From: Dehalococcoidia bacterium
GTDB taxonomy: Bacteria; Chloroflexota; Dehalococcoidia; Bin125
Reading direction: 5' to 3'
Assembly (NCBI GenBank): GCA_965221065.1
Contig: OZ244861.1
Location: 2,062,984-2,126,983, forward strand
Length of the DNA: 64,000 nt
Below are positions 194-7,656 of this stretch, one piece after another. Within the stretch, counting starts at the first letter, position 1. The number at the start of each line of letters is the position of its first letter. The translations under genes and the position numbers were made by a program. The notes below the pieces were generated by a model that made no database searches, was not told the DNA's origin, and worked only from the letters and a program-made list of their open reading frames with translations.

Positions 194-225
194 CCTGCGG
201 AGACTTAACGTCGGGGAGTGAACTC

Positions 226-660
226 ATGGCGGGACTGAACAAAGTGATGTTGATCGGCAATCTGGGTGCCGATCCTGAGTTGAGATTCACGGCCAACGGC
301 GCCGCGGTCGCCAACTTCCGGATCGCATGCAGCCGGTCGTACACGGACCGAGACGGTCAGCGGCAGGAAGTGACCGAATGGGTGTCCATCGTCGCCTGGC
401 AACGCCTGGCGGAACTGGTGGGCCAGTACCTCAGCAAGGGCCGACCAGTGTATGTCGAGGGTCGATTGCAGACCCGGCAGTGGCAGGATCGCGAAGGCAA
501 CAACCGGTACACCACTGAGGTCGTTGCGAACGATATTCAGTTCCTCGGCGGTCGTGGTGGCGGTGGTGGCGGCGACTTCGATGGAGGCGGAGGCAACTGG
601 GACGATAGCCCGGGTGACATGGGCGGCGGCCCCGATGCGGGCGATTTGCCGTTTGAGTAA
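226..660 (+). CDS. ssb: single-stranded DNA-binding protein
   Basis: OB-fold N-terminus ([22 protein letters not shown]...), Gly-rich linker and acidic DLPFE tail; rpsF-ssb-rpsR synteny. Confidence 0.9.
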
Positions 661-714
661 GCAGATTCTGCGCGCGCCCGGTTGGCGTGTGACGAACAAC
701 ATCGTGGAGATTGA

Positions 715-1386
715 TTGATGACGACTGAATCCGAACCGAGCATTGAACCGGCGCCGGAGCCCGCACCGCGGATAACGCCGGCGCCTGAGTCGGGCGAACG
801 CCTGCCGCAGATGATCGAACGTACGCGACGTCGTGGGCGGCGCCGCCGCGCGCCGATCTTCACGCCGCAGGAGGTTGCGACCATCGACTACAAGGATGTC
901 GACCGCCTGAAGAAGCTGATTTCCGACCGCGGTCGGATCGAGCCACGGCGCAAGACGGGGTTGACGGCCAAGGACCAGCGCAAAGTCGCGCGGGAGATCA
1001 AGCGCGCGCGGCAAGTAGCGCTCCTGCCCTACACGGCTGAGCACATGCGCCAGACATCGCGCTTCCGCATGGTGACGAGGATGGCTCAGCGCGCGATGCG
1101 CGCCGAACTCGATGACGCTCCGCCGGAGGCTCCAGCCGAGGGCGGTGCCGAAGTGGATGCTCCGCCGGCCGAAGCTGCCCCACAGGCGGAAGCTGCGCCC
1201 CCGGTCGAGGCTGCCCCGCAGGCTGAAGCCGCACCGCCGGTCGAGGCCGCACCACCAGTCGAGGCTGCACCGCAGGCCGAGGTTGTACCCGATGGTGACG
1301 TAGCTGTTCAAGACGATGCCGCTGCAACAGAGGAGACGGCCCCGGTCAACGAAGCAGCTTCCGTGAGTGAGGAGTCCGACGCCTGA
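715..1386 (+). CDS. rpsR: 30S ribosomal protein S18 with N-terminal extension and ~130-aa C-terminal Ala/Pro/Glu-rich tandem-repeat tail
   Basis: Core [50 protein letters not shown] is canonical S18. The tail contains about 2.5 tandem copies of [12 protein letters not shown] (36-nt DNA repeat, about 1174-1284). High GC3 in frame. Stop TGA 1384-1386 overlaps the hom ATG. Confidence 0.8.
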
Positions 1387-2693
1387 TGCAGAAGTCGTTG
1401 GGGATTGGGTTGCTCGGACTCGGGGTCGTCGGACGAGGCGTCCTCGAGGCCCTGCAGGGCAATGCCCGGGCGTACGAGGCACGCTGCGGCCGCAGATTGG
1501 ATGTCCGCGCCGCCGCCGTTCGCAACGTGGCCGCGCGTGCCGATCTGGCGGCTGGAGGACTTTCGCTGTCCGATGACCCGTTCGCTGTGGTCGACCACGA
1601 CGACGTCGATGTCGTGGTGGAGTTGATGGGCGGCGAGACACCCGCGGCGGGCTGTATCGAGGCGGCGCTATCGGCCGGCAAGTCGGTAGTGACCGCCAAC
1701 AAGGAAGTGATGGCGAAGCATGGTCCGGCGCTGTTGGCGCTGGCCGAAGAGCGCGGAGTCGAACTCCGCTACGAGGCGAGCGTCGGAGGCGGAATCCCGA
1801 TCATCGGGGTCCTGCAACGAGATCTGCAGGCCAACGATGTGTCGTCAGTCAGAGCGATCATCAACGGTACGACCAACTACATGATCACCGAGATGTCGCA
1901 GGAGGGCAAAGCCTACGCCGAGGCGTTGTCCGAGGCGCAGCGCCTCGGGTACGCCGAGGCCGACCCCACCAACGATGTGGACGGCATCGACGCCGCCTTC
2001 AAGCTGGCGATCCTGGCGTCGTTGGCGTTTCACTCGCGAGTCGGACCGGACGATGTGCATTGCGAGGGAATCCGCTCGCTCGAGGCGCGCGACTTCGTCC
2101 ACGCCCGCGATCTGGGCTACGCCATCCGTATGCTGGCCACCGCTCGTCAGACTCCCGACGGGCTTGATCTCCGGGTGCATCCCACGCTGGTGCCGGTCTC
2201 CGATCCGATGGCTGCGGTCGAAGGTGTGCTGAACGCGGTGTCGGTCTCCGGAGACCTGATTGGTTCGGTGGTGCTGGAGGGTCCCGGCGCGGGCGCCGGC
2301 GCGACATCAAGCGCCGTGGTGGCGGACATTCTGGATGTCGGCAGCCGGCTCGCCTCGGGACAAGCGCCCCGACGCTTGCGACCCATCGACCCCTCCCCTC
2401 AACTCGTTCCGCTATCAAATCTCCGGGTGCGGACATATCTGCGGCTCGAAGTTCCCGATCGCGCGGGCGTACTGGCAGAATTGGGAGCGGTGTTCGCCGC
2501 CGAGGGCGTGAGCATCGCCTCCGTACTGCAGACGCCGCATCCGCAGCGCAGTCAGTCGGCTGACCTCATCGTCACGACTCACGTCTGCAGCGATGGCGCT
2601 CTACAGCGGGTGTTGGACGGCTTGGAGCTCTCGGATTCGGTGATCGAGCTGGGCGTGCGGCTTCGGATTGAGGATGGCTGTGACAACGACTGA
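1386..2693 (+). CDS. hom: homoserine dehydrogenase (with C-terminal ACT domain)
   Basis: GLLGLGVVGRG NAD-binding motif, conserved NKEV...GGGIPII... core, C-terminal ACT-like region; ATGA overlap with rpsR. Confidence 0.9.
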   Translation: MQKSLGIGLLGLGVVGRGVLEALQGNARAYEARCGRRLDVRAAAVRNVAARADLAAGGLSLSDDPFAVVDHDDVDVVVELMGGETPAAGCIEAALSAGKSVVTANKEVMAKHGPALLALAEERGVELRYEASVGGGIPIIGVLQRDLQANDVSSVRAIINGTTNYMITEMSQEGKAYAEALSEAQRLGYAEADPTNDVDGIDAAFKLAILASLAFHSRVGPDDVHCEGIRSLEARDFVHARDLGYAIRMLATARQTPDGLDLRVHPTLVPVSDPMAAVEGVLNAVSVSGDLIGSVVLEGPGAGAGATSSAVVADILDVGSRLASGQAPRRLRPIDPSPQLVPLSNLRVRTYLRLEVPDRAGVLAELGAVFAAEGVSIASVLQTPHPQRSQSADLIVTTHVCSDGALQRVLDGLELSDSVIELGVRLRIEDGCDND

Positions 2694-3690
2694 TCCGGTA
2701 GAGGGCGCTGATACTCGCTGGCTGCGGATAGAAGAATCGATCGCGGGGCTGCGCAGTCAGACCGCTGAGCTGGCGCAATCGCACGTGCGCGACGAACGAG
2801 AACTGAGCGCCCTCGATCAACGCCTACGGGAACTTGAAGGCCGGGCGCTGACATTGGCGGCTGAGGTTGGCGCATCGCTGAGGCAACTGGAAGAAGTGCA
2901 AGCCCTCCGCGAGCGGCTCGGGCGCTTCGGCGGCGAACTGGATGAGAGCCGAGAACTGTCGGAGACCTCGACCCGGCAGTTGCGCCAGGATCTCGATGTT
3001 CAGCGCGGGACGGCCAACGACGCCCTGCGCCGACTCCAGGCGAGCGAGAAGTCGCTGAACGACCTGCGCGAGCGCTTGAGCGTCTTCGACGAGGCGATTC
3101 GTCGGGTCAACGCCGAAGGCGGCGAACTGACGCATCGGTTGTCGCAGATCGAGAACAGCCAGGTCGCACTCGGCGCGCGGATTTCTGCCAATGCCGACGG
3201 ACTGCGCCGAGCCTCCGGCGAGAGCAGCGCGCTGGAAGGTCGGATCGACGCGCTCGAGCGTCAGTTGCACGGCGTGACCGAGCGGTTGGAGCTCTCCTAT
3301 CAGAGCCTGCGTCGTGTGCAAGAGACCGCCGAGCAATGGGAGGACTTGAAGAACAACGTCGACGCGTTGCGCGGCCGGATCGAGGAATCGTTGCAGGCGC
3401 TGGACGCGTCCCGAGCGATCGTGTCGTCCGTGCAACGGGGGTCGGAGGCGCTGGAGGAGCGGATCGACAATATCGAGCGGATGAGCGAGCAGCTGCGCGC
3501 CCGTGACGCTCGTCGTGAGCGTGCCGTCGCCTCGCTGGGCGACCGGATCGAGGGCGTGTCTGCGCTCACCGCGCAAGAACAGGAACGCTTCGTGGCCCTG
3601 CAGGAACAGGTCCGACGGAGACAGATCGAGGAGCTGGAGCAGGAAATCCGAGAGTTGAAGTCGTACCTGCGAGTTCGCAGCGATGGCTAG
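2674..3690 (+). CDS. hypothetical coiled-coil protein (~338 aa, almost entirely heptad-like Glu/Arg/Leu-rich)
   Basis: Long ORF with strong GC3 bias, occupying the slot between hom and thrC. No enzymatic motifs. Start at ATG 2674 (or TTG 2668) overlaps the hom 3' end by about 20 nt; its stop TAG 3688-3690 overlaps the thrC ATG 3683. Confidence 0.6.
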
Positions 3691-4774
3691 CAGCACGGTC
3701 AGGACCGGTACATGGGCCGGTGGCGGAGTGCTCGAGCGTTATGCCGACTGGCTGCCGCTGACCGAATCGACGCCCTGCGTCACGCTGGGCGAGGGCAGCA
3801 CGCCGCTGGTGCGCGCCGAGAGTCTCGAACGCGCGACCGGCGCGGACGAGGTTTGGCTGAAACTGGAGCTGTGCAACCCGACTGGCTCGTTCAAGGATCG
3901 CGGCATGGTGGTGGCGGTGGCGAAGGCGGTCGAGCAGGGGGCGACCGCCGTACTCTGTGCATCAACGGGCAACACCAGCGCCTCGGCAGCGGCCTACGCC
4001 TCACGTTGCGGGTTGCGGGCCTTCGTGCTGGTTCCCGAGGGTCGGATTGCGCAGGGCAAACTCGCCCAGGCCGCAGCGCACGGCGCGCGCGTGCTCGCGG
4101 TCGACGGCAACTTCGATGATGCGTTGCGGCTCGCGCAGGAACTGACTGCCCGGCTGCCGCTTGCGTTGGTGAACTCGGTCAATCCCTACCGGATCGAAGG
4201 TCAGAAAACTGCCGCGATGGAGATCGTCGACGCGCTGGGCGATGCGCCCGATCTGCATTGCATTCCGGTCGGCAACGCCGGCAATATCACCGCCTACTGG
4301 CACGGGTACTGCGAGTACTTCCACGCCGAGCGGGCCTCGCAACGGCCGGCCATGCTTGGCGTTCAGGCCGCGGGCGCGGCGCCGCTGGTGCGTGGACGGC
4401 CGGTGGCGCGCCCCGAGACGATCGCGACCGCGATCAGGATCGGCGCGCCCGCCTCATGGGATGGCGCCATCGAGGCGCGAGACGAGTCCGGTGGTTCGAT
4501 CATCGCGACGACCGACGAACAGATCCTCGATGCATATCGGACACTGGCGAGCGAGGAAGGCATCTTCTGCGAACCGGCCTCGGCGGCTTCAGTGGCGGGG
4601 CTTCTCACCCGGCACGGAGCCGGTTCTCTCGCGGGCCGACGCGTGGTCTGCACGATCACGGGACACGGATTGAAGGACCCGGAACGGGCGGTGGAGTCGA
4701 TTCGCGCTGACGTGGTGGAGATCGGCTCGAACTTCGACGAAGCGGCGGAGGCGATCGAGGAGGGGCTGCGATGA
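3683..4774 (+). CDS. thrC: threonine synthase
   Basis: PLP-lysine motif GSFKDRG, conserved ...AYWHGY... and overall length; hom-thrC context. Confidence 0.9.
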
Positions 4775-5346
4775 GCGGTCGAGTCGATCGCGCAAGGGCG
4801 GAAGCCGCCGTCCGAGACCTGCTGCTGGCGCTGGGCGAGGACCCGGATCGCGAAGGTCTGCGCGAAACGCCGCGCAGGGTGGTGGCGGCGTACGAGGAGA
4901 CGCTCGGCGGCCCGGACGTCAATATCCCGGAGCTGCTGTCGGTGGGCTTTGAAGAAGGCCACGACGAGATGGTCATCCTGCGCGATGTGCCCTTCTTCTC
5001 GATGTGCGAGCATCACCTGATGCCGTTCCATGGGATCGCCCATGTGGGCTACGTGCCCAATGGCCGCGTCGTTGGACTCTCCAAGCTGGCCCGCCTCGTC
5101 GATGCGATGGCTCGACGCCCGCAGTTGCAGGAACGGCTGACGGCGCAGATTGCCGACGTGCTGATGGACACGATTCAGCCGCAGGGCGCCGCGGTCGCCG
5201 TCGAAGCGGAGCATCTCTGCATGCAGATGCGCGGGATCAAGAAACCCGGCTCGCGCATGCTGACCTCGGCGATGCGCGGCAGTTTCCTTGAGCAGGAAGA
5301 GACGCGAGCAGAGTTCCTCTCGCTGGTTGGGACGCAGCGATTGTGA
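4771..5346 (+). CDS. folE: GTP cyclohydrolase I
   Basis: Motifs [22 protein letters not shown]; 191 aa; 4-nt overlap with thrC stop. Confidence 0.9.
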
Positions 5347-6338
5347 GTTTGGCTGTCGTCAGCGGCCAATACGCCGATCTGCGCGATCGCTGGAGCGCAC
5401 TCTGCCGCGCCGTCCCGGCGACGCCGTTCTCAACACCGGAGTTCGGCGAGGCGTGGTGGTCCGTGTTCGGCGAATCCGCTTGCGGCGAACTGGAGCTGGT
5501 TGGGCTGGAGAATGGAACCGGCGAGCTGGTGGGGTTGGCCCCGCTCAGGCGCTGCGAGACGCATTGGACGTTCGCCGGCGACCACGAGGTGTCGGACTAC
5601 CTCGGACCGGTGGCGCAGGCCGGCAAGGAGCGGGAGCTCGCCTCCGCTGTGCTGGATCGTCTTGAGGCGTCCGACGCGCAGACGGCGGAGTTCCGTGGGA
5701 TCGAACCCGGTTCGAACTGGGCGAGCCTCTTCGGAACTGCGGTCGAGCGCGGCTGGCGGGTTGACGTCGAGCAGGAAGCCGTGTGTCCGACAGTCGAGAT
5801 TGGCGGCGGCTGGGAGACATACCTGTCGAACCTGCGCCCGCGGGATCGGCGCGAGGTACGGCGAAAGCTGCGACCGCTGCGCCAGCTTCGCGGGGCTGTG
5901 GAGTTCAAATCCGTCGAGAGCCCGCAACAGGTGGCGGCCTGGATGCCTGAGTTCATGTCGATGATGGCCGACTCCCGCGGCGACAAGGCGGTGTTCCTGA
6001 CCGACGAGATGCGCTCCTTCTTCGAGCGCCTCAGCGCATCGCTGGCGGAAGCGGGTTGGTTGCGGCTGTATGTGATGTCGGTCTCGGGTGAGGCGGCGGC
6101 GATCGTGCTCTGCTTCGTCGCCCAGAATCAACTGCTGCTATACAACAGTGGCTACAGTCCCAAATTCCGTGACCTGTCGGCTGGATTGGCGTCCAAGGTG
6201 CTGTGCATCCGCGATGCGGTTGAGCGGGGGATGTCGAGCGTGAACTTCTTGCGTGGCGATGAGCCGTACAAGTATGAGTTGGGCGGTCGCGACGCCGTGG
6301 TCCGCCGCATCCAGCTCACCAGGGAGCTCGCAAGATGA
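5343..6338 (+). CDS. GNAT-superfamily acyltransferase of the CelD/BioF2/FemAB-like (Acetyltransf_6) type
   Basis: 331 aa; C-terminal [14 protein letters not shown] motif is typical of CelD/FemAB-like acyltransferases. GTG start at 5343 overlaps the folE stop; its stop overlaps the next gene's start. Confidence 0.55.
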
Positions 6339-7633
6339 TGCGACCTCGACGGCGCCTGGCCGTGATGTCGACGCACACCTCGCCGCTAGCCAAGGCGGGT
6401 ACGACCAAGGCCGGCGGCATGAACGTCTATGTGGCCGAGTTGTCACGCCAGCTTGTCGACCTGGGCTGGGAAGTCGACATCTTCACACGGCGCGACCACC
6501 CCGACGCGCCGTACGTCGAGGAGTTCGCGCCCGGTGCGCGGTTGTTTCAGGTCGATGCCGGCCCGCCGGTAGTGCTGCCGCCGATCGAAGTGGCCGCGCA
6601 TGTCTCGGAGTTCACCGAGGGCGTGGCCCGGATTGCGGCCGGACGCGACGATTACGACCTCGTCCATTCCCACTATTGGGTGGCGGGACTCAGTGGCATC
6701 GAGCTGTCGCGGCGCTGGCAATGTCCCCACGCGGTGATGTTCCACACCCTGGGCGCGGTCAAGCAGATGTTCCAACAGCCGGAGCCGCCGTTCCGCCTCG
6801 CCGGCGAGCGGCAGGTCGTGGCTTGCTCCGACGTGATCATCGGCGCGACATCCCACGAGCGGGCATTCCTGATTGGGCAGTACGAAGCGGACGCATCGCG
6901 TGTCCGCGTCGTCCCGTGCGGGATTGATCTGTCGCGCTTCCACCCGTCTGGTGTCGAGGAATCCCGGCGCAGGGTGGCGACCGCCTTCCCCGAGCTGGGC
7001 CTGTCCGAGGGCCCCGGCATCCTCTTCGTCGGACGACTCGAGGAGGCGAAGGGTGCCGACCTGCTGATTCAAGCGTTGCCGCTCATCAAGGCGCAATCCG
7101 ACCCGCTGCTCTGGATCGCCGGCGGCGACGAGCGTGACAATGGCGAGCGCGCGCGGCTGCGCGACCTCGCCGATGCCTGCGGCGTCGCCGAGCGCGTGCG
7201 ATTCGTCAACGCCGTCGACAGAGAGCAATTGCCCGACCTGTACCGGGCCGCGGCGGTCTGCGCCGTGCCGTCCGCCTACGAGTCGTTCGGTCTGGTGGCG
7301 GTCGAAGCGATGGCCTGCGGCACCCCGCCGGTGGCGACCAGGGTTGGTGGACTGGCAACCACGATCACGCACGGCAAGACCGGCCTGCTGGCGAACGATC
7401 GCCGACCCGAACACTTCGCCTCGGCAATCGAGCGCCTGCTCTCCGACGACACGCTGCGAAGTCGGATGGGCGTTGCCGCCGCGGCCGAGATGGCCGTGTT
7501 TTCCTGGAACAGCGTGGCTCGCAGTATTCTCGACGTGTACCAGGACCTGCTGAACGAGGCCGAGGTGGCAGGCTCGCAACGAGACTCCTGTTGCCCGGAT
7601 TCGGTGGAGTCCCTGTTGGTGGCGGCGAGTTAG
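6335..7633 (+). CDS. mshA: GT4 glycosyltransferase, MshA-like (D-inositol-3-phosphate N-acetylglucosaminyltransferase-like)
   Basis: N-terminus RRLAVMSTHTSPLAKAGTTKAGGMNVYVAELSRQLVDLGWEVDIFTR closely matches the MshA signature (SxHTSPL...GGMNVYV); GT4 C-terminal EX7E region present. Confidence 0.7.
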   Translation: MMRPRRRLAVMSTHTSPLAKAGTTKAGGMNVYVAELSRQLVDLGWEVDIFTRRDHPDAPYVEEFAPGARLFQVDAGPPVVLPPIEVAAHVSEFTEGVARIAAGRDDYDLVHSHYWVAGLSGIELSRRWQCPHAVMFHTLGAVKQMFQQPEPPFRLAGERQVVACSDVIIGATSHERAFLIGQYEADASRVRVVPCGIDLSRFHPSGVEESRRRVATAFPELGLSEGPGILFVGRLEEAKGADLLIQALPLIKAQSDPLLWIAGGDERDNGERARLRDLADACGVAERVRFVNAVDREQLPDLYRAAAVCAVPSAYESFGLVAVEAMACGTPPVATRVGGLATTITHGKTGLLANDRRPEHFASAIERLLSDDTLRSRMGVAAAAEMAVFSWNSVARSILDVYQDLLNEAEVAGSQRDSCCPDSVESLLVAAS

Positions 7634-7656
7634 GGAACTACGCCTCATCGAAGCAG

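Follow-up and report, generated by a model that had tools for sequence, protein, structure and literature searches.

In a 64,000-nucleotide stretch of the genome of a Dehalococcoidia bacterium of the phylum Chloroflexota (contig OZ244861.1; this whole stretch is referred to below as the window), a gene that we denote X is embedded between hom and thrC, the genes for homoserine dehydrogenase and threonine synthase, and overlaps both of them. X is a genuine protein-coding gene that evolves under purifying selection, in the sense frame only. Judging from sequence comparisons, its product founds an undescribed, length-invariant family of coiled-coil proteins that marks one deep lineage of Dehalococcoidia. 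In the interpretation that we favor, at about even confidence, X would be a structural or scaffolding rod of fixed length, the expression of which is tied to that of thrC and which piggy-backs on a housekeeping operon. The features of the immediate locus are as follows.

hom, 1386..2693, + strand: homoserine dehydrogenase of 435 amino acids (aa) with an ACT domain (Pfam Homoserine_dh, NAD_binding_3 and ACT)
Gene X, 2674..3690, + strand: acidic coiled-coil protein of 338 aa (open reading frame, ratio of nonsynonymous to synonymous substitution rates (dN/dS), at least 144 homologous clusters, one predicted helix and 3.50-residue periodicity)
thrC, 3683..4774, + strand: threonine synthase of 363 aa (Pfam PALP)
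Overlap of hom and X, 2674..2693, + strand: 20 nucleotides (nt) counted from ATG 2674, read from the open reading frames and the sequence
Overlap of the X stop and the thrC start, ATGGCTAG, 3683..3690, + strand: 8 nt, read from the sequence
Putative Shine-Dalgarno-like GAGG, 2670..2673, + strand: read from the sequence
Antisense open reading frame, 2824..3696, - strand: 290 aa, a non-coding by-product by dN/dS

Both flanking genes were assigned by NCBIfam models, hom by NF004976 (484 bits, cutoff 205) and thrC by TIGR00260 (296 bits, cutoff 167). The open frame of X extends on the + strand from TTG 2668 or ATG 2674 to 3690; the hom stop codon TGA is at 2691-2693, the X stop codon TAG at 3688-3690 and the thrC ATG at 3683-3685. 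The first-pass annotation of the locus, which had described X as a protein of ~338 aa translationally coupled within hom-thrC, was accurate with regard to the ~20-nt overlap with the 3' end of hom and to the overlap of the X stop with the thrC start. The length of 338 aa holds for ATG 2674 (TTG 2668 would yield 340 aa), but the true start may be GTG 2680, which would yield 336 aa and reduce the overlap with hom to 14 nt, because the sole Shine-Dalgarno-like GAGG near the X start is located 6 nt before GTG 2680 but directly abuts ATG 2674, and because 336 aa is the modal length of the family. No promoter-like or terminator-like sites were found within hom-X-thrC. X is probably co-transcribed with its neighbors, and ribosomes that terminate on X would re-initiate on thrC via the stop/start overlap; the overlaps at both ends are observed directly, and it is from them that we infer the coupling claimed in the first-pass annotation.

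The coding properties of X match those of the adjacent genes. The GC content at third codon positions is 0.767, compared to 0.73-0.83 in the neighbors, the GC content by codon position (0.74/0.45/0.77) follows the same pattern as in these genes, and the codon-usage score is highest in the + frame (0.364 vs 0.234 for the codon-aligned antisense frame), in agreement with the good codon bias reported previously. Comparison with eight relatives that share 59-96% protein identity with X, by the Nei-Gojobori method, yields dN/dS values of 0.05-0.16 for the frame of X and 0.9-2.4 for the antisense frame 2824..3696, so the antisense frame, which had been named as the finding that would refute X if it proved to be the real coding frame, loses the test. 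Such antisense frames commonly accompany GC-rich genes without TTA, CTA or TCA codons; this one ends at the CTA codon of Leu51 of X. Synonymous sites vary uniformly throughout X, and the variation under the conserved C-terminal motif, 0.46-0.48, is normal where the amino acid identity reaches 0.62-0.78; hence the constraint is on the protein rather than on a ribosome-binding site of thrC or an RNA structure, and an RNA-level cause of the conserved 3' end of X is ruled out. The first-ATG heuristic employed in the surveys of synonymous variation and junctions produced a few over-long open reading frame calls, which are artefacts. Long antisense open reading frames are present opposite most of the genes of the window, which has a GC content of 60-70%; these include 205..1641, 2824..3696 and 6443..7648, all on the - strand.

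A search with the single sequence of X identified 76 protein clusters of 320-341 aa that show 33-91% identity to X, and a profile search extended the family to at least 144 clusters, nearly all of them 335-343 aa long. The alignments of the family are almost free of internal gaps down to ~20% identity. An exhaustive phmmer search of 1.84 billion cluster representatives returned only 24 proteins, essentially the X family. A scan of one genome per GTDB species with an alignment of 30 sequences (A1), which missed distant subfamilies, detected 53 loci, all 53 in metagenome-assembled genomes titled Dehalococcoidia, Chloroflexota or Chloroflexi, many of which stem from sponge metagenomes. No relatives were found in viral contigs, and a phage or mobile origin of X is rejected on these grounds. 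There is no paralogue of X in the 64-kb window, and a 341-aa unannotated gene located upstream in locus L004, considered as a relative, is unrelated. An apparent hom-X fusion (P0077, 607 aa) results from an assembly frameshift, with out-of-frame junk at the junction and at the end. Internal repeats in X are weak (residues 116-145 vs 186-215, hhalign probability 74%). In the source databases, the family members are labeled "hypothetical protein" or, in several cases originating from the Joint Genome Institute (JGI), "chromosome segregation ATPase/protein". The proteins that carry the JGI segregation label (P0039, P0098, P0120, P0130, P0133 and others) consist of 335-348 aa and have no ATPase head; this label is a spurious artefact of arm composition.

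X is located directly upstream of thrC in all 70 X loci examined, with hom upstream in nearly all cases, and the order hom-X-thrC is found in 62 of the 62 loci gathered up to the GTDB-species scan; relatives thus conserve a gene at this position, the key check proposed in the first-pass annotation. The usual setting is rpsF-ssb-rpsR-hom-X-thrC-folE-GNAT-GT4(-PIG-L-ccsA-rpsL-rpsG). X diverges faster than its neighbors, in one example with 31% identity compared to 55% for hom and 72% for thrC. The overlap of X and thrC has the form ATGnnTRR in most of the relatives and is 17-29 nt long in a distant group, and hom and X are separated by as much as 170 nt in some relatives and overlap by up to ~20 nt in others. 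In the distant subfamilies (22-30% identity), the X-thrC pair is kept and the surroundings are changed: a gene for a SurA-like protein/peptidyl-prolyl isomerase is inserted before hom in L063, and L066 has the arrangement rpsR-SurA-hom-X-thrC-glyoxalase with a 25-nt gap between X and thrC. In two loci, there is no hom at the site, and X-thrC is preceded by a gene for a SurA_N-like, membrane-anchored, chaperone-type protein:

L065, 7933..11098: X-thrC, with a 4-nt gap between the two genes
L068, 228..3343: X-thrC

Insertions at other junctions of the gene block were observed, but never at X/thrC.

A ThrC profile scan provided an outgroup set of 80 metagenome thrC loci with 53-69% ThrC identity, in 4 of which hmmsearch detected an X-family open reading frame. 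In most of the 76 loci that lack X, hom is directly upstream of thrC, in accord with the initial assertion that these two genes normally form a tight unit. Two of these loci (L067 and L071) keep ssb-rpsR-hom-thrC-folE-GNAT-GT4 without X, and two others (L073 and L129) keep parts of this block without X. Because sister lineages keep the same block with hom adjoining thrC, X is, on the evidence of gene order, an insertion at the ancestral hom-thrC junction that is specific to one Dehalococcoidia lineage, in which it would have been retained after insertion. On an AT-rich contig (L089, 2467..3471), a 334-aa acidic, all-helical open reading frame is situated between hom and thrC, overlaps both, and has a C-terminus, RKRFEENERELRLAK, that resembles the X-family motif. 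Comparison of this protein with the X profile is collinear but not significant (E 0.039); it is possibly a very divergent member of the X family.

The X protein is rich in Arg (14.8%), Glu (13.9%), Leu (13%), Ala (10.7%) and Gln (7.1%) and contains almost no Lys or Pro. The isoelectric points across the family are 4.9-5.7 and the net charges are -8 to -20; with the protein acidic throughout, nucleic acid binding via the RRR patch is unlikely as a general property. The AlphaFold2 model built with alignment A1 consists of one helix, residues 9-336, with a mean predicted local distance difference test (pLDDT) score of 87. Averaged over the family, the spectrum of hydrophobicity is highest at a period of exactly 3.50 residues, and this periodicity is phase-coherent along the whole chain, so the original description of X as an all-coiled-coil protein is borne out. 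The register assignment includes about 46-47 heptads and is interrupted in four places, close to residues 75, 106, 219 and 316. Leu, Ile and Val together account for ~61% of the residues at position a and for ~53% of those at d, or 63% at d if Ala is included. The g positions are enriched in Arg (29%) and the e positions in Glu (22%); the mean charge product of g and e' (i+5) is -0.176, compared to ~0 for the other i/i+5 classes, and antiparallel g-g'/e-e' charge complementarity is absent at every offset. Parallel coiled coils that are in register typically display such a charge pattern, and X is accordingly predicted to form one. The rise of an alpha-helix is ~0.148 nm per residue, and the 328 helical residues would therefore span ~48-49 nm. 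The landmarks of the protein are the following.

Motif R50-L-R-E-L-E55, 2821..2838, + strand: in-register Arg(g)-h-x-x-h-Glu(e) motif, with R50 and E55 invariant in the 30 sequences of A1
Central motif ARISANxxxLRR, residues 168-179, 3175..3210, + strand: near-invariant, with the invariant Asn173 at heptad position d
Possible hinge, residues 178-184, 3205..3225, + strand: helix break predicted by AlphaFold2 with the diverse alignment only
C-terminal signature, F306-R333, 28 residues, 3589..3672, + strand: conserved more strongly than any other part of the protein, on every helix face

Further in-register Arg(g)-h-x-x-h-Glu(e) motifs, as defined previously (PMC3653964), occur in X at R155, R190 and R263. 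In a PDB profile search, the central motif aligns with the RITANTKAI repeats of the P22 tail needle gp26. Layers of Asn at d together with R-h-x-x-h-E motifs have been described for three-stranded coils (PMC3653964, PMC13580157).

Searches of X and its relatives against Pfam, NCBIfam, PADLOC and PDB sequence profiles yielded only coiled-coil noise and no reproducible family assignment, and the isolated C-terminal motif matches nothing in the family libraries. The absence of a catalytic motif noted in the first-pass annotation is upheld. The matches below the Pfam cutoffs include TMF_TATA_bd, DUF7310, Tropomyosin, EzrA and others. The tropomyosin match (PF00261) scores 22.3 bits (E 1e-4) against a gathering threshold of 38.6, faint precomputed matches to the same family are found in many X-family members, and PDB tropomyosin chains match X at E 0.007-0.02. 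The EzrA match (PF06160) scores 18.9 bits compared to the threshold of 39.6, and X has no hydrophobic N-terminal segment. Matches to SMC proteins (TIGR02168, COG1196) reach 60 bits, with the cutoff at 567, and involve arm positions 689-945 only; those to JetC, LmuB and DruC of PADLOC are weak (14-27 bits) and limited to the arm regions, and the context of X consists of housekeeping genes rather than a defence island. A match to the SpiroCoCo/LA_3659 model NF047516 exceeds the cutoff (41.1 bits vs 36) but is compositional, given that the relatives fail (13.8 bits for P0070 and no match for P0076); X is below the cutoff of 75 for NF047514. Weak PDB matches were also obtained to P22 gp26, reovirus sigma-1, EibD, UspA1 and LINE-1 ORF1p; the matches to trimeric fibres arise because X contains the Arg(g)-h-x-x-h-Glu(e) motifs and an Asn-at-d layer. 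Searches of the literature revealed no relevant work on a cytoskeleton in Chloroflexi or on coiled-coil genes within hom-thrC operons.

We propose that X, an acidic protein of ~336-338 aa that appears to form one continuous heptad-repeat helix and has no catalytic domain, assembles with one or two further copies of itself into a parallel, in-register coil, and that the resulting rod serves as a cytoskeleton-like, tropomyosin-like structural or scaffolding element. Binding of partners, or of the ends of X itself, would be mediated by the 28-residue motif at the C-terminus and by ARISANxxxLRR in the center, and the position of the gene would reflect a ride on a protected housekeeping operon rather than a role in threonine chemistry. 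We favor this structural interpretation because the operon is functionally mixed and because the outgroups run Hom and ThrC without X; the seven-gene chain of mixed housekeeping functions in the window likewise favors hitch-hiking. Several observations weigh against it. The function is inferred from the architecture; the adjacency of X and thrC outlasts very deep divergence, the loss of hom (L065, L068) and the loss of the overlap (L065, L066); the number of strands is ambiguous, with Leu-rich d positions that are dimer-like and Asn-at-d and R-h-x-x-h-E motifs that are trimer-like; the helix break at residues 178-184 in one of the AlphaFold2 models leaves room for a hinge or a hairpin; and mirrored conservation correlates at i+j ~311 (r = 0.64), which is borderline after allowing for the scan. 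The strongest single pair in direct coupling analysis (DCA) is 121-189, with a sum of 310. The peak at i+j ~311 fits none of the structural models tested and may be due to chance.

The persistence of the X-thrC pair through the loss of hom, of the overlap and of the downstream genes keeps a ThrC-linked role alive. X could be a dedicated partner of ThrC, and perhaps of Hom, that tethers, assembles or regulates the enzyme, as a metabolon scaffold or as a stoichiometric assembly factor, with translational coupling setting a fixed X:ThrC ratio. The invariable location of X upstream of thrC in all 70 loci is compatible with such a role, as are its maintenance where hom is absent (L065, L068) or the downstream genes are replaced (L065, L066), the confinement of insertions to other junctions of the block, and the possible positional analogue in L089, likewise between hom and thrC. 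A fixed position is, however, expected for a structural protein as well: selection on an operon protects every gene within it from rearrangement, whatever the gene does, so the conserved position does not separate the two interpretations. The operon of the window mixes S18, Hom, X, ThrC, FolE, GNAT and a glycosyltransferase, the outgroups have the same enzymes without X, X evolves far faster than hom or thrC, and the literature search revealed no coiled-coil partner of ThrC or Hom; we know of no pure coiled-coil protein that is a partner of either enzyme. On balance, a dedicated ThrC partner seems unlikely to us, although the choice between a regulator or assembly factor and a cytoskeletal hitch-hiker, both of which were suggested in the first-pass annotation, is not one that sequence data can make. 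More speculative, and in our estimate rather improbable, is the proposal that X forms a ~49-nm rod that organizes ThrC, and perhaps Hom, into a metabolic assembly, or else a cytoskeletal ruler with ThrC-coupled dosage; under these two readings, the gene may have been born within the hom-thrC operon or captured into it. If true, either would amount to a form of enzyme scaffold or cytoskeleton that has not been described in bacteria.

The remaining alternatives concern the form of the protein and its very existence. X might fold back as a long helical hairpin, or pair as an antiparallel dimer, as in SMC arms or the signalling domain of chemoreceptors, which would place the central motif close to the tip and the two termini together at the base. 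Such an arrangement would explain the strict length and the near absence of indels in the family, since any indel in one arm would have to be matched in the other. The AlphaFold2 model built with a diverse 25-sequence alignment (A4), in which helix 8-177 and helix 185-337 are separated by a break at 178-184 with pLDDT below 50, could be read in this way, as could the location of the invariant motif 168-179 at the midpoint and the mirrored conservation at i+j ~311. However, the heptad register is unbroken through residues 141-218, the g-e' charges are of the parallel type with antiparallel complementarity at no offset, and the register breaks are not mirrored. The predicted template modelling (pTM) score is 0.26 with either alignment, so the relative placement of the two halves is undefined and the hairpin fares no better than the straight model. 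Mean-field DCA of 186 sequences gave no anti-diagonal signal near i+j = 357, in an analysis that is underpowered (effective number of sequences, Meff, 74), and the second AlphaFold2 model had no matches in a Foldseek search of the PDB, a lone helix being uninformative for fold search. We therefore consider a hairpin or an antiparallel dimer quite improbable. A stable single alpha-helix of the ER/K type, acting as a monomeric spring or spacer, would be in line with the very high content of Glu and Arg and with the lone helix predicted by AlphaFold2. However, single alpha-helices have no hydrophobic heptad seam, whereas X displays a strong, phase-coherent 3.5-residue seam with a and d positions rich in Leu, Ile and Val; furthermore, Lys is nearly absent and there are no flanking domains to space apart, all of which makes this option very improbable. 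Finally, the chance that X is non-functional, be it because the antisense frame is real, because the frame is an accident of GC-richness or because X is a fragment of an SMC-type "chromosome segregation ATPase", is practically negligible. The length of the antisense frame (290 aa), the JGI names of several family members and the TIGR02168 match at 60 bits might hint at it, but full-length homologues reach down to ~20% identity, the SMC match spans only positions 689-945 of 1181 in the arm and falls far short of the cutoff, and X could not accommodate ATPase heads or a hinge. This idea is already refuted by the extent and score of the SMC match and by the dN/dS values, low in the sense frame and high in the antisense frame.

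In the window, X belongs to a chain of seven co-directional genes linked by stop/start overlaps, rpsR-hom-X-thrC-folE-GNAT-GT4, at 1386..7633. The ribosomal, amino acid, folate and glycoside genes appear, from these junctions, to be translated as one coupled string. The remaining features of this region are as follows.

rpsR, 715..1386: ribosomal protein S18 of 223 aa, with the S18 domain at residues 55-104 followed by a ~120-aa tail rich in Ala, Pro, Glu and Gln
GNAT-GT4, 5343..7633: an Acetyltransf_6/FemAB-like GNAT followed by an MshA-like GT4 glycosyltransferase
Stop/start overlaps: rpsR/hom, 1386; hom/X, 2674-2693; X/thrC, 3683-3690; thrC/folE, 4771-4774; folE/GNAT, 5343-5346; GNAT/GT4, 6335-6338

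The tail of the S18 protein is encoded in part by an 18/36-nt tandem repeat at 1158..1282; the S18 genes of relatives encode 131-268 aa, and the tail varies in length. The score of the GT4 protein against TIGR03449, 353 bits, does not reach the cutoff of 462.5, and in relatives a PIG-L deacetylase gene follows GT4 (downstream in L003, L004 and L006). By gene content, GNAT-GT4-PIG-L looks like a pathway of the mycothiol/bacillithiol type or for an N-acetylglucosamine (GlcNAc) glycoside in Chloroflexota. Neither tRNA genes nor Rfam families at the gathering threshold were detected in the whole 64-kb window.

Sponges and the ocean harbor abundant Dehalococcoidia of this type, but these bacteria are uncultured, and essentially nothing is known of their cell biology. 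The unusually fixed length of X, its near-invariant terminal motif and its place in an operon that is needed constitutively together make it a good candidate for a structural core component of the cell. The gene also presents a clean example of a lineage-specific gene inserted and locked inside a universal biosynthetic operon. The current "chromosome segregation ATPase" labels on members of the family are wrong. Should X bind ThrC or Hom, it would represent a new type of enzyme scaffold.

Comparison with known systems suggests that the closest analogue of X in build is tropomyosin and, in kind, the lineage-restricted bacterial scaffolds rich in coiled coils, although in neither case does the likeness amount to homology. 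Like the predicted rod of X, tropomyosin is acidic, is built as a coiled coil without interruptions, and has a fixed length and conserved ends. Compared to the two-stranded parallel coil of tropomyosin, X displays a continuous 3.5-residue period, g-e' charges of the parallel type and a conserved length, with a number of strands that may be two or three. Tropomyosin consists of 40 heptads compared to about 46-47 in X; furthermore, X is bacterial and has no known filament partner, and the ~39.5-residue actin-binding periodicity of tropomyosin is not demonstrated for X. The scores below the cutoff are explained by composition, so the resemblance is in build rather than in descent. Similarly to X, scaffolds of the crescentin, FilP, Scy and DivIVA type are cytoplasmic, non-enzymatic and mostly coiled coil, with few heptad discontinuities, and are lineage-restricted and fast-evolving. 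However, no sequence similarity between these proteins and X was detected, there is no DivIVA or other Pfam domain in X, and the length of these scaffolds differs from species to species, in contrast to the invariant length of X.

The arms of SMC, Rad50, JetC and LmuB resemble X in composition and periodicity, which accounts for the sub-threshold NCBIfam and PADLOC matches, but X lacks an ATPase head, a hinge or a zinc hook, and its scores are 10-20 times below the cutoffs; in addition, SMC arms are antiparallel, whereas the charge pattern of X suggests a parallel coil. P22 gp26, the stalks of trimeric autotransporters and LINE-1 ORF1p are trimeric fibres that combine Asn-at-d layers with R-h-x-x-h-E motifs; the invariant I-x-x-N(d)-x-x-x-L motif of X aligns with RITANTKAI of gp26, and X contains several in-register R-h-x-x-h-E motifs. 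Unlike these trimeric fibres, X has a single Asn-at-d layer and d positions dominated by Leu, and contains no signal peptide, anchor or head domains. The PDB matches of X to these fibres are marginal, with E values of 0.0025-0.09.

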